A stretch of DNA of 64,000 nucleotides from Pyrinomonadaceae bacterium (GCA_036726305.1 DAIMCP010000020.1:2995-66994); one strand, 5' to 3'; positions 26,095-52,418 are shown, numbered from the stretch's first letter. Made by a program: numbers and translations. Notes: generated from the sequence alone by a model not told the origin.

Positions 26095-26646
<552 letters not shown>

Positions 26647-27000
26647 GCCTTTGTCCTCCCTTTCTTGAGTTCCATCACCGAGCGGGAACGCCACTTTCTT
26701 CGGCTCGTCAGGCAAGCTGAATTAGCGCCAATACCTGCAGCGCGGACTTCCCTGGGATGTCGGCAGCATAGTGCCTGATCAATATTCTCGCAAGCAATTT
26801 CCTGCCAGGTATCAACCCTTCCAGCTGGTCGCAATCGGGAACATATCTCGTTCATCCATGTTTAAAAACTCAAGAATTCCTCAAGGGTCATGCCGTAAGA
26901 CTTTTGGAGTGATCGGAAATCACGCCGTTCAAACTTGGAGCCTTCACCGGCGAATGCTTCGGATGTCAAGTTAACAGGGATCAAGGAACCAGAATTAACA

Positions 27001-44039: not shown

Positions 44040-45023
44040 TTAGTTTGGCGCTGGCGGCTGGATCAGATCCGGGATGCTAGCGATTGCTGCTGCCGGCAAC
44101 GGCTTGAGCCTAAGTTGCTCTGCGAGAAAAGCAAGCCGGTCGCTCCGCGCCTCAGCATTTAGCGCATGCGGGGCCTCGTAAAGCTTGAATCGCTTTGGCT
44201 GGCTAACAATTGCTTCATATTGTTTGGCGCGTTCAGGGTTTAAAAATCTTTCCTGAGTGGCGAATTGCAAGAAAACAAAGGCCGGTGCCGCGTGGGAGAC
44301 GTATTTGCCTGGATCTGACCAATCGTGTTTCCTAACGAACGCGTCGAATTTGTCGGGGCCTACTTTCTGTCGATAGTTCTGGTATTCCGGACTTTTCAGA
44401 TCGACTTCGTCAGAAAGAGCACCGGCCATCAGAACAAACGCCTTGAATCTGCGGTCAATCCCACTAAGAAAGCCGCCCACCGCAGCGTTATAACTGTGGC
44501 CAACGTAGGCAATTCGTTTCGGATCAACATCCTTCCGGGCCAGCAACAGGTCAAGACCGCGGCGCATATCCACTACTTGCTGGACAAGGTCAACGAACTG
44601 CTGCTCATTGAGCGGTTGGTTATTTTCTACGTGGCCGGGACGCGCGATTGGTCCGTCGGTCAAGAGTGAAATCACGCCGCTCTGGGCCAGTGCCACCGCC
44701 TCGTCAAGAAATTGTGTGCGGTTGCGGGCCGTTGAATTGCTCCAGTACCAATGTCCCCAGATCACGGCCGCGAACGGGCCCTTTCCCGGAGGCACGACCA
44801 GATAAGCCGGGACTTCGCCGCCTTTGGGACTTGAATAGGTGATGTCAAAGATAGCTGTACCAGCGCGATGCTCAATACCTTTCTCTTTGAGACCGAGGGG
44901 CGCTTTCCTGTCGTAGTCAAAGTGCCGAAGCATGTCGGCGTCCTGTGCGAGCCCCGGCGAAGCGCAAAAAGCAGCAATGGTAGTCAAAAAAAACACCTGC
45001 AAAACAGGAAGTGGGCTTCGCAT
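44040..45023 (-). CDS. secreted alpha/beta hydrolase (dienelactone hydrolase / acetyl esterase-like)
   Basis: The ATG at 45023 has an AGGAGG RBS and a signal peptide (VFFLTTIAAFCASPGLAQ). 'IAYVGHSYNAAVGG' is a nucleophile-elbow-like motif. The assignment is approximate. Confidence 0.5.
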   Translation of the reverse strand: MRSPLPVLQVFFLTTIAAFCASPGLAQDADMLRHFDYDRKAPLGLKEKGIEHRAGTAIFDITYSSPKGGEVPAYLVVPPGKGPFAAVIWGHWYWSNSTARNRTQFLDEAVALAQSGVISLLTDGPIARPGHVENNQPLNEQQFVDLVQQVVDMRRGLDLLLARKDVDPKRIAYVGHSYNAAVGGFLSGIDRRFKAFVLMAGALSDEVDLKSPEYQNYRQKVGPDKFDAFVRKHDWSDPGKYVSHAAPAFVFLQFATQERFLNPERAKQYEAIVSQPKRFKLYEAPHALNAEARSDRLAFLAEQLRLKPLPAAAIASIPDLIQPPAPN

Positions 45024-45139
45024 CGGCGGTTCCTCCTTTTCTTGCGTTTGGGCTGGCGGCGATAATTGACAATAGTATAGCTCCGGTGCGACGCTCTGCG
45101 AACACTGCACTATGCAATGAAACGAAAGGAGAACCGTTA

Positions 45140-46171
45140 ATGCGTCTGACTGAAATGGTTTCGTGCTCTGGTTGAGCGGCTAAGCTCGATCCCGGCATAC
45201 TCGCTCAGGTTTTGAGCGGGCTACCACCACAGCCTTTTGACGGAAATGTGATGGTTGGCTTTGACAAAGCCGACGACGCCGGAGTGTATCGACTGCGTGA
45301 AGACCTCGCGATCGTGCAGACAGTAGATTTTTTCACACCCATTGTTGACGATCCATTTGTATTTGGTCAGATCGCCGCGCTCAATTCCATCAACGACGTC
45401 TGGGCCATGGCGGGAACACCGGTGACGGCGCTGGCGATAACTTGCTTTCCCAAAAAGGGCGTTGATCCGGCCATTCTTGGGGAGATCATGCGCGGTGGGC
45501 TCGAGACTTTGAACCAGTACGGTGTCACTTTGATTGGAGGCCATAGTGTTGACAACCAGCAGATCATGTTTGGCTATTCGGTTACTGGAGTAATCGATCC
45601 GGGAAAGATCGCCACGAACGCCGGCGCGCGTCCGGGAGATGTAATCATCCTCACGAAGCCGATCGGCACCGGCGTCATTTCCACCGGGATCAAGTTTGGC
45701 AAATCCTCTGCGGAGATCGCCGCCGCGTCAGTCGCTACGATGTTGACACCAGGCAAGCACGCTGCTGAGGCAATGCGGGAATTCGACGTCAAAGGCGCAA
45801 CCGACGTCACGGGCTTTTCCCTCCTTGGCCATGCCTGGGAGATGGCGCGGGCCAGCAACGTGACCATAAAGATCGAACCCGGTTCGGTACCGTTGCTGGC
45901 CGGTGCGTTGGAGTTGGCCGCCGCCGGGATGCTCACCAGTGGCGATGGGACGAACCGAGCTTATGTGGGGGAAGACATTGAGCTTGGCGATGCAGTCGAC
46001 GAAAACTTGCGCAAGCTGTTTTTTGACCCGCAAACCGCCGGGGGAATGTTGATTGCCGTTCCCTCTGATCGCGCACAGGCATTATTAATGAGGTTGCGTG
46101 CCCATTATCCCCAGGCAAGCATAGTCGGCGTAGTCGTCGAGCGCGGGCCACGATTAATTACAGTGAACTAA
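45140..46171 (+). CDS. selD: selenide, water dikinase (selenophosphate synthetase), selenocysteine-containing form (TGA 45173..45175)
   Basis: The ATG at 45140 lies 8 nt after AGGAG. The N-terminus is '[25 protein letters not shown]', i.e. the (C/U)xxK active-site loop of SelD. It runs in frame into track ORF 45212..46171 ('DDAGVYRL', '[11 protein letters not shown]', 'SINDVWAMG'-like). The total of 343 aa is the normal SelD size. Confidence 0.9.
45200..45220 (+). promoter_or_regulatory. candidate bacterial SECIS hairpin for the selD UGA
   Basis: CUCGCUCA-GGUUU-UGAGCGGG: an 8-bp stem including one G-U pair, with an apical loop GGUUU. The loop G residues lie about 33 nt after the UGA. Confidence 0.5.
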
Positions 46172-46194: not shown

Positions 46195-47613
46195 ATGGCC
46201 TCTACAATTCAGCAAATAACGCCGGCGAAAGCGCATTCAATTAGCGAGCTCTATCGGGCAGTCCGCGCCCGAACCATGCAGATCGTGGCGCCGTTGGAAA
46301 TTGAGGACTATGTGATTCAGACCGCCGACTTTATGAGCCCGCCGCGCTGGCACATCGGCCATACCTCCTGGTTTTTTGAAACTCTGCTGCAGGCACACCA
46401 GCCCGGCTACAAAATCTACTCTGAAGAATATCTGTTCTACTTCAACTCCTACTATGAGGGACTTGGCGAGCGAATAGCGCGGCCCAAACGCGGCACCAGG
46501 TCACGGCCTACGGTCAGGGACACGATTAGATATCGTAATCATGTCGACGTCGAAATGCTGCGGTTTCTGGACACGATTGACGAGCATTCGCAGAGAGAAG
46601 CGGTGTTGTCGCTTGTTCGACTCGGCCTTGAGCACGAGATGCAGCACCAGGAACTGCTCGTCTACGACATCAAACACCTGCTAGGCGATCAGTTTGATGC
46701 GCCCATCCAGCCTGCGCCGGTATCGTCGACCGAAGTCACCGGAATGGCCGAGATAGAAGGCGGCATGTTTTGGCTCGGTTACGGCGCGCAAGTCCAGAAC
46801 CCAGAGACCAAAGGCCAAGGTCCTTCTCACTTTGACTTCGCTTTCGATAACGAGAAACCCGCGCACCAGGTTTTCCTCCACGACTTTGCCATTGATCGCG
46901 CGCTTGTCAGCAATGGTGATTATCTTGAATTCATGCGCGCCGGCGGCTATCAGAACTTTCGCTGGTGGTTTTCCGAAGGCTGGGAGACGGTCAATCGTGA
47001 GCAGTGGGCTGCACCGATGTATTGGGAACTACACGATGGCCAATGGATGATTCGCGATTTCACCGGACTGAACGCTGCTGCAAGCAAAGCTAACGAACCA
47101 GTCTCACACGTCAGTTTTTTCGAAGCCTCGGCGTTTGCCAAATGGGCGGGAAAACGCCTGCCGACAGAAGCTGAATGGGAGAGAGCTGCCTGCGGTTCGA
47201 GTCACAACAAACCCTCGCGACCCGCGGGAGCTGCGGTGATCGCCCCTTATGGAAGTGGGCGTCGAAATTTTCCCTGGGGAAGCACTGTACCTACCGCAGC
47301 TAACGCCAATCTTTTTGAGAATGGCCTTTGGTCGGTGGCTACCATCGGCTCCTATCCAGCCGGGCAAAATGATCTCGGTTGCCAGCAGCTAATTGGCGAT
47401 GTATGGGAATGGACCACGTCCGATTACGTTCCCTATCCCGGCTTTAAATCCGAGTTCGATGAATACAACGACAAGTGGTTCGTCAATCAGAAAGTATTGC
47501 GCGGTGGTTCGTTCGCCACGCCGCAACTTCATATCCGCTCAACCTACCGAAATTTCTTCCACGCGCACGAACGGTGGATGGTTTCCGGCTTTCGTTGCGC
47601 CCGGAATTTATAA
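46195..47613 (+). CDS. EgtB/SenA-family sulfoxide (or selenoxide) synthase (DinB-like + FGE-sulfatase-like domains)
   Basis: '[15 protein letters not shown]' and '[15 protein letters not shown]' (His iron triad of the EgtB DinB domain). C-terminal FGE-like 'GDVWEWT', 'RGGSFAT' and 'GFRCAR'. No OvoA-type methyltransferase domain. Starts 23 nt after the selD stop. Confidence 0.8.
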
Positions 47614-47744
47614 CGTAACTGGCTAAGGCTCTGGCGTCAGCTCGACCTGTCAACAATCGCTTACGTTACACCGCGGCGTTGCGTCTAGTGGCCAATGTTT
47701 CATCTATGCAAAATGAGCACGGCAATTGTATAATGCCCGGACCC

Positions 47745-50700
47745 ATGAAACCGAGTCTCTTTCATCCAGCGGTAGCTAACTGGTTTGCGAAGCAGTTCCC
47801 AGGCGCTACGCCACCACAGGAACGGGCATGGCCAGCCATCAAGAACCGTGAGAACACGCTAATCGCGGCGCCGACCGGTTCCGGCAAGACGCTCGCGGCA
47901 TTTCTCGCGGCCATCGACGACCTGGTGCGGCTTGGCCTGGAAGATAAGCTCGAGGACACAACCCACGTCATTTACGTCTCGCCGCTCAAGGCTTTGAGCA
48001 ATGATATTCAGATCAACCTGCAAAAACCGCTTGAAGGAATTGAGCGCGAATTGCAGGCGTTGGGATTGCCGCCGGTAAACATTCGTACGCTGGTCCGGAC
48101 GGGTGATACCCCCGCAGCCGAACGCACGGCGATGACCAAGCGCCCGCCGCACATTTGTGTCACGACGCCGGAATCGCTTTTCATCCTTTTGACCAGCGAA
48201 GGCGGGCGTCGGATGTTGCGTACGGCGCGCACCCTGATTGTTGACGAAATACACGCCCTGGTGGGTGACAAGCGTGGTTCACACCTCGCCCTCTCGATTG
48301 AAAGGCTTGAGCATCTCGCCGCTCAGCATGAACTCGAAATGCAAAGCTCTCAGATCCAGAACCCCAGGCTTGAATTCCAACAACCCGCAGCCAACCTTCG
48401 ACATTCCCGTTTGGTGCGTATTGGACTATCAGCCACCCAGCGGCCCATCGAGGAAGTGGCCCGCTTTCTGGTTGGCACAGCCAATTTAAACAACGATGGA
48501 ATGCCCAACTGCACGATAGTTGACAGCGGTCATGTGCGCCGGCTCGATGTCGCAATTGAACTCCCTGAATCTCCTCTGCAGGCGGTAATGTCGGGCGAGG
48601 TCTGGGACGAAGTCTACGACCGTCTGGCCCAACTCATTCGCGAACACCACACAACTTTGATCTTCGTCAATACACGCCGGCTCGCAGAGCGAGTCGCGCG
48701 CCACCTCGGCGAGCGCATCGGCGACGAGAATATTGCCGCGCATCATGGCAGTCTCGCCCGTGAACAGCGTCTGGCTGCGGAGCAGCGCCTGAAAGCCGGT
48801 GAGTTGAGTGCGCTGGTAGCCACAGCCTCGCTGGAGTTAGGGATAGATATTGGGGACGTGAATCTGGTTTGCCAGCTCGCCTCGACGCGTTCGATAGCCA
48901 GCTTCCTGCAACGCGTGGGGCGCTCGAATCACACTGTCGAAGGGTTTCCGAAAGGCAGAATCTTTCCGCTCTCGCGCGATGAGCTGGTGGAATGTGCGGC
49001 TTTGATCGATTCTGTGCGCCGGGGAGAGTTAGATCAGGTGTCGATTCCGCAGCAACCGCTCGACATCCTCGCGCAGCAAGTCGTAGCTGCGGTCGCCGCC
49101 GAAGAATGGATTGAAGACGATCTCTTTGCGATGGTGCGAGGCGCCTATCCGTACCGGAATCTGGAGCGCAAAGACTTTGACGAAGTAATTCGCATGCTGG
49201 CCGAGGGGTTCGCGACCAAACGTGGCCGGCGGTCCGCATACGTGCATCATGACGCGGTAAATCATCGCTTGCGCGGCCGCCGCGGCGCCCGCCTCGCGGC
49301 AATCACCTCCGGGGGTGCGATTCCTGACACCGCTGACTATGCAGTGGTGCTCGAGCCGGGCGGTCTGGTCATCGGCAGCGTCAATGAAGATTTCGCCATC
49401 GAGAGTTTGCAGGGAGATATTTTTCAGCTGGGCAATACCTCCTGGCGCGTCTTGCGAGTCGAGCAGGGAAAAGTCCGGGTTGAGGATGCGCATGGCCAGC
49501 CGCCTTCGATTCCCTTCTGGTTGGGCGAAGCCCCGGCGCGCACGCATGAGCTTTCTGCGGCGGTCTCGCGTTTGCGCTCAGAAGTGGCCGAACGCGTTTC
49601 CGTCAGTAGCGCTGACTTAGATCTGCGGGTTGAGGCAAACGGAACAACAGTCGCGGCTGAGGCTCAATACCCCGAAGAAACAAAGTCCTCCATCGACACG
49701 ACTTCAAGTCTGCATTACCTGACGGACGAAGTTGGCATATCTCGCCCCGCAGCCGAACAGATTGTTGAATATCTCGCAGCATCGAAGATCGCTCTCGGCG
49801 TCATGCCGACACAGCAGGATATCGTGCTGGAACGCTTCTTTGACGATAGCGGCAGCATGCAATTGATCGTCCATGCTCCCTTTGGCAGTCGTTTGAATCG
49901 GGCCTGGGGTCTGGCTTTGCGCAAACGTTTTTGTCGCCAATTCAACTTTGAACTCCAGGCCGCGGCTACCGAAGACGCAATCATTTTATCGCTTGGTCCC
50001 ACACACAGCTTTCCGCTTGGCGATGTCTTTCACTATCTGAATTCCAAAACGGTCCGTGACCTGTTGTGTCAGGCATTGCTCGACGCTCCGATGTGGAACA
50101 TCCGCTGGCGCTGGAATGTGACGCGGGCCCTTGCGGTCCTGCGCCGTCGCGGCGGCAAAAAGATTCCCGCCCAGCTGCAGCGCATGAATGCCGAAGATCT
50201 GTTGACCGCGGTCTTTCCCGATCAGGTTGCCTGTGTCGAAAATCTTGGCGGCGGCCCACGCGAGATTCCCGAGCATCCCCTGGTTGCGCAAACTGTCAAA
50301 GATTGTCTGGAAGAGGCAATGGATATCGAAGGCCTCGAATCATTACTGCAATCAATCGAGCGTAATGAAAGAAATCTAATCGCGCGAGATATGGTCGAAG
50401 CATCGCCGCTTGCGGCTGAAATTTTGAACGCTCGTCCCTACGCTTTCCTGGACGACGCTCCGCTCGAGGAGCGTCGGACGCGCGCGGTGTTTCAGAGGCG
50501 CTGGCTGGATCCGGAAAAGGCGGCGGACATTGGCAGATTGGATCCTGCGGCAATCGAGCGTGTGCGGGAAGAAGTTTGGCCAGAGGCGCAGAATCCGGAT
50601 GAGCTGCATGACGCTCTGGTGGAGTTAGGATTCCTGACTGAGGCCGAAGGTGCAGAATGGCAAGAGTGGTTTGCCCAGCTGCAGGTCGACCGGCGAGCTG

Positions 50701-52418
50701 CTGTGCTCGTGACTGGGACCGAACCTGGGACCGAACCTGGGAGCGCAGGCATCCTGCCTGCCCCCTCGTCGAATGCCATTCAATCGGCGGCAGGCAGGAT
50801 GCCTGCGCTCCCAGGCAGGCTTTGGGTGGCAGCGGAACGCTTACCGCAACTACAGGCAATCTTCCCTTTCGCTTCCCTTTCCCCGCAGATTACCGCGCCG
50901 GAGAGCTACGCGCAAACAACCTGGTCTGGCGAAGACGCATTGGTTGAGATCGTACGTGGAAGGCTCGAAGGACTTGGTCCTGTTACGGCAGAAAGTCTGG
51001 CCATTTCACTTGGCTTGCCGTCCAGGGATATCGAGGCCGCCCTGCTCAAATTGGAAGCTGAGGGCTTCGTTATTCGCGGCAGCTTCTCAACCGGCGCAAG
51101 TGCTGTTGAATGGTGTGCGCGCCGTTTACTGGCGCGTATTCACAGTTACACGCTGAACCGACTACGGCAGGAGATAGAACCGGTTTCCAGCTCGGATTTC
51201 ATTCGCTTTCTGCTGGCCTGGCAAAAGGTTGCTCCCGATCACCAGATCGAAGGACCGGAGAGTCTGCGCGTCGTGCTTGAACAGCTGGAAGGATTTGAGG
51301 CCCCCGCAGCGGCCTGGGAGGGCGAATTGTTGCCCAGCCGGCTCATCGAATACGATCCCGTCTGGTTGGATGCACTATGTTTGTCGGGTGAAGTGATGTG
51401 GGCGCGCCTGACTCCGCCGGCGGCCCCCAAAAATGGTCCGGAAAGGTCCCGTGGATCGGGCCCGGTGCGCACAACGCCGATAGCGCTGATTCGACGTAAA
51501 AATCTGGCGGTTTGGAATTCTGTTTTTCCGCAACCTTGGCTGGAAGACATCAGATTTTCAAGCATCACAGAAGTTGTCTATAGCTATCTGCGCACCCGCG
51601 GCGCTTCTTTTTTCCATGACATTGTGGACAGTACCAAAATGCTGCGCGCCCAGGTGGAAGAGTCACTGGCTGAGCTGGTGGCTTACGGCCTGATTACTTC
51701 TGACAGCTTTACCGGCTTGCGCGCATTACTGACCCCGGCAAACCGCAAGACGCGCGCTGCAGCTCGGCACAAACATCGCCAACCGGTCTACGACATGGCC
51801 AGCGCCGGTCGCTGGTCGCTCCTGTCGAGAAACGCAGGAATTGAGTCTTCCGAAAATCCTGCAAGCGTTCCGCCAGCCAAACCCTCCGCAACTACTCCCC
51901 GGTGGCAAACCTTTGCAGCGGTTCCAGCGGAAACAAAAGAAGCCGTCGCGCGCATCCTGTTGCAACGTTACGGCGTCGTCTTCAAGCGCTTGCTGGAACG
52001 CGAAGGAATTGTGCTTCCCTGGCGCGATTTGCTGCGCGTTTATCATCGCTTGGAGGCGCGCGGGGAGATTCGAGGTGGCCGCTTTGTCGCAGGCATTTCG
52101 GGGGAACAATTCGCACTTCCTGACGCGGTCGGGTTGGTCAGATCTATCCGGCGCGCCCCGGAAAAGGGAATCATGATTTCGATTAGCGCCGCTGATCCAC
52201 TGAACCTTGCCGGATTGATCACGCCGGGGCCGCGGGTTACTGCTCATACTGCAAATCGCGTCCTTTACAGTGATGGCGCTCCAGTCGCTGCACTGGAGTC
52301 GGGCGAGACGCGCTTTCTGGTTGAAATGAGTCGTACCATGGAGTGGCAGGCCAAGGCTGCCTTGCTGCGAAAGGCCACGCCCCCGGTGCTGCGTTCATAC
52401 CTCAGCCGGCGCGCCTGA
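47745..52418 (+). CDS. lhr: large ATP-dependent helicase Lhr (DEAH box, full-length type)
   Basis: '[10 protein letters not shown]' (motif I), 'LIVDEIHAL' (DExH), 'SATQ', '[10 protein letters not shown]' and '[10 protein letters not shown]'. Long C-terminal extension. The ATG at 47745 is preferred within ORF 47679..52418. Confidence 0.85.
50739..50812. repeat. perfect 24-bp inverted repeat (26-nt spacer) embedded in frame in lhr
   Basis: GGGAGCGCAGGCATCCTGCCTGCC at 50739..50762 and its exact reverse complement at 50789..50812. Preceded by a tandem 12-nt duplication GGGACCGAACCT x2 (50715..50738). Confidence 0.9.

Follow-up and report, generated by a model that had tools for sequence, protein, structure and literature searches.

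The 64,000-nucleotide stretch of DNA from a Pyrinomonadaceae bacterium analyzed here (GCA_036726305.1, DAIMCP010000020.1:2995-66994; hereafter, the window) carries a selD gene interrupted by an in-frame UGA codon, and sequence comparisons indicate that this gene very probably encodes a full-length selenophosphate synthetase with selenocysteine (Sec) as the catalytic residue of its N-terminal loop. The assignment draws on the homology of the read-through product, on the conservation of the UGA among orthologues, on a covarying hairpin downstream of it, and on the Sec-decoding machinery present in the genome, an uncultured-type assembly of 149 contigs that is 93.7% complete. Coordinates of selD, its signals and its neighbors are collected in Table 1.

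Table 1. Features of the window discussed in the text.
Feature	Position	Strand	Basis
Peroxiredoxin-like ORF, motif FTGGUTKE, in-frame TGA read as Sec at the peroxidatic position, N-terminal signal-like segment; predicted second selenoprotein gene of the window	26095-26715	-	
Divergent ORF, likely start near 45023, signal-peptide-like N-terminus, GHSYN nucleophile-elbow-like motif (alpha/beta-hydrolase-like)	44040-45110	-	
AGGAG, Shine-Dalgarno-like, 8 nt 5' of the selD ATG	45127-45131	+	read from sequence
selD, selenophosphate synthetase (selenide, water dikinase), 343 aa, predicted Sec at residue 12	45140-46171	+	profile and structure matches
In-frame UGA, predicted Sec codon U12 (E. coli Cys17 equivalent)	45173-45175	+	gap-free alignment to 3u0o, offset +5
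Lys15 codon, counterpart of E. coli Lys20	45182-45184	+	alignment
Putative bacterial SECIS hairpin, stem 45200-45207 with 45213-45220, 7-bp core, apical loop GGUUU 45208-45212	45200-45220	+	covariation, RNAalifold
egtB, type II EgtB, DinB_2 and FGE-sulfatase domains, begins 23 nt after selD	46195-47613	+	profile and structure matches
DEAH-box helicase, 1579 aa, Lhr-like, after egtB	47679-52418	+	PRK13767 671 bits, PRK09751 604 bits, both below cut-off

Sec-type selD genes with an in-frame UGA and a hairpin have long been known, and ORF callers routinely shorten them. The mechanical ORF list for the window does so too, placing selD at 45212-46171 with a TTG start and a product of 319 aa. Read from the ATG at 45140, the frame contains a single TGA and then stays open to a TAA at 46169-46171, yielding 343 aa when the TGA is translated as Sec (U), and SelD homology starts at residue 1 or 2 of this longer ORF. 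The first-pass annotation of the window had described the same frame, with its one TGA, its 343-aa product, the AGGAG ahead of its ATG and the truncation at 45212 in the ORF track, and all of these coordinates proved correct when the sequence was read again.

The read-through product scores 357 bits against the TIGR00476 profile (cut-off 125), with residues 2-311 lying on profile positions 1-310 of 311, and 299.6 bits against NF002098, barely above the cut-off of 299. Its best matches among solved structures are the SelD proteins of Escherichia coli (3u0o, E = 6.7e-60) and Aquifex aeolicus (2yye/2zod, E = 1e-59). In the 3u0o alignment, U12 falls on Cys17 and K15 on Lys20, which sets the Sec/Cys three residues before the catalytic Lys and agrees with the glycine-rich N-terminal loop recognized in the first pass. 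Residues D46, D63, N82, D86 and D222 align with E. coli D51, D68, N87, D91 and D227, which we take from the published structures to be the metal- and ATP-binding Asp/Asn residues of the PurM-like fold. The gene is single-copy, a profile search of the whole genome having returned one match above the cut-off, which carries 1 TGA. The product is thus a full-length member of the SelD family, predicted to form selenophosphate from selenide in an ATP-dependent reaction. SelD catalysis needs a Sec/Cys-x-x-Lys loop, which a product initiated at the TTG at 45212 would not contain.

The TGA is a stable character of the gene across its relatives. A SelD orthologue was present in all 40 of the relatives' genomes searched; the top 30 (100-53% identity) each carry exactly one TGA, and in all 30 it lies inside the motif (E/Q)(M/L)Vxx(S/A)G-TGA-xxK. 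Scanning named contigs returned 80 selD loci, all labelled Pyrinomonadaceae, Blastocatellia or Acidobacteriota, with the motif identifiable in 76; the Sec codon is TGA in 75 of these and TGC in the remaining one (L079). Five more distant Sec-type selD genes that were fetched (52% and 41-43% identity) also contain the TGA, which in the class-level orthologues at 41-43% identity is embedded in GAG-TGA-ACK. The union set spans Pyrinomonadaceae and further families of the class and comprises 87 distinct sequences; 86 of them have TGA, and the single exception has TGC (Cys). The 11 codons 5' of the TGA and the 12 codons 3' of it show protein-level conservation in more than 100 genomes. Since the upstream 11 codons, including those for the conserved peptide EMVSCSG that precedes the TGA, vary synonymously while the protein sequence is maintained, this segment is evidently translated.

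The exceptional sequence, L079 (JAMQPI010000422.1), has TGC at selD codon 12 and retains the full hairpin, and it looks like a natural Sec-to-Cys replacement, a recent conversion with a remnant SECIS. A second genome of the same family, G014 (locus L133, G014:C147), possesses a Cys-type selD with TGC at the Sec position and only a weak 4-bp stem remnant, and the class-level Cys-type orthologues (L134-L137), whose loop the motif pattern did not pick up, have no internal stop. When aligned with SelD proteins bearing Cys or Sec at the position of E. coli Cys17, as the first-pass annotation had suggested, the Sec codon of the window falls on the Cys of E. coli, L079 and G014. The first pass had tied its choice of the upstream start to a G(C/U)xxK loop in the orthologues, and they do keep this loop. 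The UGA thus displays both features that the bacterial SECIS (bSECIS) model expects of a Sec codon, namely, Cys in homologues and retention in orthologues. The conservation of the TGA position together with that of the hairpin described below is, as judged from these alignments, far beyond chance. The relatives compared are not independent samples.

In the bacterial Sec pathway, SelD provides selenophosphate, SelA converts Ser-tRNA(Sec) into Sec-tRNA(Sec), and SelB binds a hairpin in the coding region and brings Sec to the UGA (PMC13188914, PMC1794560). Profile searches of the genome recovered selA (523 bits, open frame of 496 aa) and selB (367 bits, open frame of 648 aa, contig C60), as well as one tRNA-Sec, which scores 69.7 bits on RF01852 (gathering score 47) and is called by ARAGORN as tRNA-SeC with anticodon UCA. 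Hence, selA, selB, selC and selD all reside in the same genome, as is expected of a genome with a bSECIS gene. The first-pass annotation had held that UGA is recoded in this organism and had looked to Sec-insertion genes elsewhere in the genome to bear this out; these genes are present with intact frames, the tRNA has the UCA anticodon, and, along with the conserved UGA and the covarying hairpin, they support the claim. At the level of the genome as a whole, TGA remains a stop codon: it ends 595 of the 1477 stop-to-stop frames of at least 400 codons, more than any other stop, and global UGA reassignment is ruled out on this ground.

We consider it highly unlikely that the UGA is read as Cys, Ser, Trp or another non-Sec residue, whether by a suppressor tRNA (a selC*-type tRNA-Cys(UCA) or an acidobacterial allo-tRNA) or by near-cognate read-through. 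Sec-tRNA-like tRNA-Cys(UCA) species are able to translate the opal codon in a selD of the Sec type, and Acidobacteria carry unusual allo-tRNAs that could act as suppressors, but selC* genes have been reported in Firmicutes, Thermodesulfobacteria, Nitrospirae and Proteobacteria, not in Acidobacteria (PMC5389517). A SelD with Cys at this position would work, as it does in E. coli, and ARAGORN calls one unusual tRNA, with a 4-base anticodon, on contig C88; however, the sole UCA tRNA found is the tRNA-Sec, which exceeds its gathering score, no second UCA anticodon occurs among the 48 tRNAs called by ARAGORN in the whole genome, and the intact selA means that the UCA tRNA can be converted to Sec-tRNA. 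Furthermore, the presence of TGA rather than TGC or TGT in all but one of the distinct orthologue sequences argues for selection for Sec itself.

Two further observations concern the tRNA complement. The odd call on contig C88 is an 82-nt 'tRNA-???' with the four-base anticodon gcga (G000:C88:2640-2721, minus strand), which could be an allo-tRNA or a false call. In addition, 12 tRNA genes are packed within approximately 1.5 kb of one strand at another locus (L014, G000:C32:1966-5048): those for His, Glu, Leu (four), Gln, Arg, Ser (two), Trp and Tyr.

The hairpin that we regard as the putative SECIS of selD lies 24 nt 3' of the UGA. Its RNA reads CUCGCUCA-GGUUU-UGAGCGGG, corresponding in the DNA to the inverted repeat CTCGCTCA/TGAGCGGG around the loop GGTTT, and it lies within the codons for L-A-Q-V-L-S-G. 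A possible closing G:U pair within GGUUU would leave a GUU triloop, and the element can accordingly be drawn with 8 bp and a 5-nt loop or with 9 bp and a 3-nt loop. In a gap-free alignment of 30 orthologous segments, in which the helix corresponds to columns 40-47 paired with 53-60, paired cells make up 89.7% of the total; shifting the partners by 1-3 columns lowers this share to 29-50%. Double-sided changes occur at three pairs (19 cells), and the covariation score was not attained in any of 500 shuffles. RNAalifold independently returns the same helix, with a closing pair at columns 48-52.

The signal extends to the larger set of 87 distinct sequences, 82 of which make 7 or all 8 of the pairs. 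The pair 45205/45215, which links the third base of a synonymous Ala codon (GCU/GCC) to the first base of Ser AGC or Gly GGC, is U-A in about 68-69 sequences, C-G in 12 and U-G in 4, with the C-A mismatch in only 2; among the aligned positions, it is the strongest single covariation signal for the predicted hairpin. At 45202/45218, C-G (76 sequences) alternates with U-A (5) and G-C (1), and the first and last loop positions, N1 and N2, covary as G:U (37), A:U (25) and G:C (23). The conserved peptide LAQVL also constrains much of the hairpin sequence, and only the covarying positions constitute independent evidence at the RNA level.

The bSECIS model of Zhang & Gladyshev, as summarized in PMC13188914, specifies an upper stem of 4-16 bp with an apical loop of 3-9 nt, separated from the UGA by 16-37 nt; one of the first two loop nucleotides is a G, and the usual arrangement is N1-G-[G/U]-N-N2 with N1 and N2 paired. 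The element in the window has stem and loop lengths within these ranges in either of its two drawings, its loop reads G-G-U-U-U (A-GUU-U, G-GUU-C and G-GUG-U in relatives), and 32 nt (45176-45207) separate the UGA from the loop. In four distant Sec-type orthologues of the same class but other families (L138-L141, from genomes G040, G036, G028 and G032; 41-43% identity), the region following the UGA encodes the peptide DLVEVL and contains a different 7-bp hairpin, unrelated in sequence, with a G-rich loop (for example, GGUCG) located approximately 6 nt closer to the UGA; the spacing is 26 nt in L138, the one in which it was counted. Between these genes and the selD of the window, the structure of the predicted SECIS is conserved, whereas its sequence is not. 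Searches of Rfam matched no family, either across the whole window at the gathering threshold or within 45100-45300 at E <= 10, and the database is therefore neutral on the hairpin, neither for nor against it.

Thermodynamic folding of the sequence on its own gives a different picture. The 63-nt segment is not significantly stable (z-score -1.24), and its minimum-free-energy (MFE) structure is a competing hairpin. The heptamer UGAGCGG is repeated in selD, and its pairing gives rise to two mutually exclusive hairpins, of which the UGA-containing one is the MFE structure here and in the closest relatives and is not conserved more widely.

It is extremely unlikely, in our assessment, that the UGA-containing hairpin at 45173-45207 is the recoding signal or that the two exclusive folds act as a switch. 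This hairpin is the MFE fold of the window sequence at -21.3 kcal/mol, either copy of UGAGCGG (45173-45179 or 45213-45219) can pair with CUCGCUCA at 45200-45207, and the close relatives L026-L028 fold likewise. Among 29 distinct sequences, however, its helix has 73.7% of cells paired with covariation barely above that of shuffles, alignment pair 15-45 is broken in 13 of the 29, the inner pairs are mostly broken, and several pairs are broken in one third to two thirds of the sequences. Moreover, RNAalifold does not recover this helix, and the hairpin begins 13-14 nt after the UGA, outside the bSECIS range of 16-37 nt (PMC13188914). The first-pass annotation had placed an 8-bp hairpin with the loop GGUUU at 45200-45220, 24 nt after the UGA, and had proposed a fold of the region as a check; the position is right, and the helix covaries in orthologues and fits the bSECIS model, so that this check, like the alignment and the search for Sec-insertion genes, came out as predicted, with the qualification that the single-sequence MFE prefers the competing hairpin. 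It is by the comparative data, and by these only, that 45200-45220 is identified as the selected hairpin.

The reading of the TGA as a true stop, which would leave a pseudogene or a truncated SelD initiated at the TTG at 45212 without the N-terminal loop, has practically no chance of being correct, even though it is the default under table 11 and TGA is the commonest stop in the genome: the shorter product has no Sec/Cys-x-x-Lys loop, the codons flanking the TGA show protein-level conservation in more than 100 genomes, the HMM match begins at residue 2, the gene is the only selD of a genome that retains selA, selB and tRNA-Sec, and a ribosome-binding site precedes the ATG at 45140, with none so placed before 45212.

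Under the preferred interpretation, that is, Sec insertion at the UGA guided by the hairpin at 45200-45220, SelA would make Sec-tRNA(Sec) from Ser-tRNA(Sec) and selenophosphate. SelB carrying this tRNA would bind the hairpin, whose apical loop is separated from the UGA by 32 nt, and the bound complex would deliver Sec at 45173-45175 in place of termination. We infer both the incorporation of selenium at the UGA and the binding of SelB to the hairpin by analogy with described bacterial systems. As the sole selD of the genome would itself be Sec-dependent, synthesis of SelD would require its own product, a self-referential loop that is known for Sec-type SelD.

Other potential consumers of selenophosphate were sought in the genome with profile models. 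At its 93.7% completeness, it yielded no match over the cut-off for selU (tRNA 2-selenouridine synthase), and the one model tried for the formate dehydrogenase alpha subunit (TIGR01553) likewise produced no match over the cut-off, its weak matches being without an internal stop. For SenB (TIGR04348), the best genomic match, at 64 bits, fell short of the cut-off of 300, and none was located near selD. Given that selU, SenB and a Sec-type formate dehydrogenase all lack a match, selenophosphate appears to serve Sec synthesis only, and its users appear to be SelD itself, the Sec peroxiredoxin encoded in the window, and any selenoproteins not yet found.

The gene following selD on the same strand belongs to the EgtB family, and no terminator-like site was detected on the plus strand between the two. 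Its product passes the EgtB model TIGR03440 (463.9 bits, cut-off 360) and fails the SenA model NF041186 (341.9 bits, cut-off 420); the nearest structure is the type II EgtB of Chloracidobacterium thermophilum (6o6l/6qki, E = 5e-95), compared with E = 2.4e-32 for SenA. It is the only EgtB of the genome, with egtD located elsewhere, on contig C5. The sequence evidence thus marks egtB as an ordinary type II ergothioneine synthase. The neighborhood is a family-wide trait: an EgtB homologue lies downstream of selD within approximately 3 kb in 77 of 80 Pyrinomonadaceae loci. Of the 67 loci whose flanks are long enough, 38 have the two genes side by side; genes that intervene in relatives encode a photolyase and hypothetical proteins, not SenB. 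On the other side of selD, the divergent ORF at 44040-45110 has no Pfam or NCBIfam match and is conserved in only some genus-level relatives.

The selenoneine biosynthesis cluster senABC contains a SelD homologue, SenC, and a SenB of the family TIGR04348 (Kayrouz et al., bioRxiv 10.1101/2022.04.13.486033). We rejected the assignment of the selD-egtB locus to such a cluster in view of the missing SenB, the type II nature of the neighboring EgtB, the location of egtD on contig C5 and the presence of a single EgtB. A functional coupling of selD and egtB through a SenB-independent route, in which selenophosphate or Sec derived from it would reach the type II EgtB and give rise to selenoneine or a related organoselenium compound, strikes us as very unlikely; it is suggested by the family-wide and often operon-like linkage of the only selD to the only egtB. 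If true, this would give the Sec-type SelD a role in the selenium metabolism of small molecules in addition to that of proteins. Instead, we attribute the linkage to inheritance of the gene order surrounding an ordinary ergothioneine gene.

Among the selenoprotein families of prokaryotes, SelD ranks second in breadth of distribution (PMC13188914, PMC1794560), bSECIS elements of Sec-type selD genes have already been described (PMC4561486), and Acidobacteria were credited with 3 selenoprotein families in 2006 (PMC1794560). Against this background, the Sec-type selD reported here is an annotation fix and introduces no new principle; neither this Pyrinomonadaceae lineage nor its hairpin sequence is described in the literature on Sec-type SelD cited here. 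In practical terms, the gene model should begin at 45140 and include a Sec codon, the version starting at 45212 representing an enzyme without its catalytic loop, and the same truncation is to be expected for selD in the many Pyrinomonadaceae and Blastocatellia assemblies that carry the TGA. In biological terms, the sequence data point to what looks like a working Sec-decoding trait in a soil acidobacterial lineage, the Pyrinomonadaceae. This trait appears to persist in the absence of selenouridine and of a Sec-type formate dehydrogenase, with SelD and at least one Sec peroxiredoxin as its apparent anchors, a pattern consistent with the published proposal that SelD is able to sustain the Sec trait (PMC1794560, PMC13188914).

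Comparison with characterized systems places the gene among known Sec-type enzymes. The locus resembles senABC in that selD stands right beside an EgtB-family gene, with a 23-nt gap here, and differs from the arrangement around SenC in having no SenB, a neighboring EgtB that is not of the SenA type, and a sole selD that coexists with selA and selB. With the Sec-type SelD of other bacteria, the gene shares a UGA lying in frame within the flexible loop at the N-terminus, a stem-loop in the coding region just downstream and the dependence on selA, selB and selC; the difference is that SelD occurs here without an accompanying Sec-FdhA or selU. The E. coli enzyme (3U0O) has the same fold family, metal- and ATP-binding Asp/Asn residues and catalytic Lys, and can be aligned without gaps across residues 2-104, but it has Cys (TGC) where the Pyrinomonadaceae gene has Sec, specified by TGA plus the predicted SECIS. 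The SelD of A. aeolicus (PDB 2ZOD/2YYE), which we take to be natively a Sec13 protein crystallized as a Cys mutant, comes from another phylum; at the protein level, it matches across nearly the whole length (345 aa against 343 aa here, E = 1e-59), with the loop SGCAAK corresponding to SGUAAK in the window.
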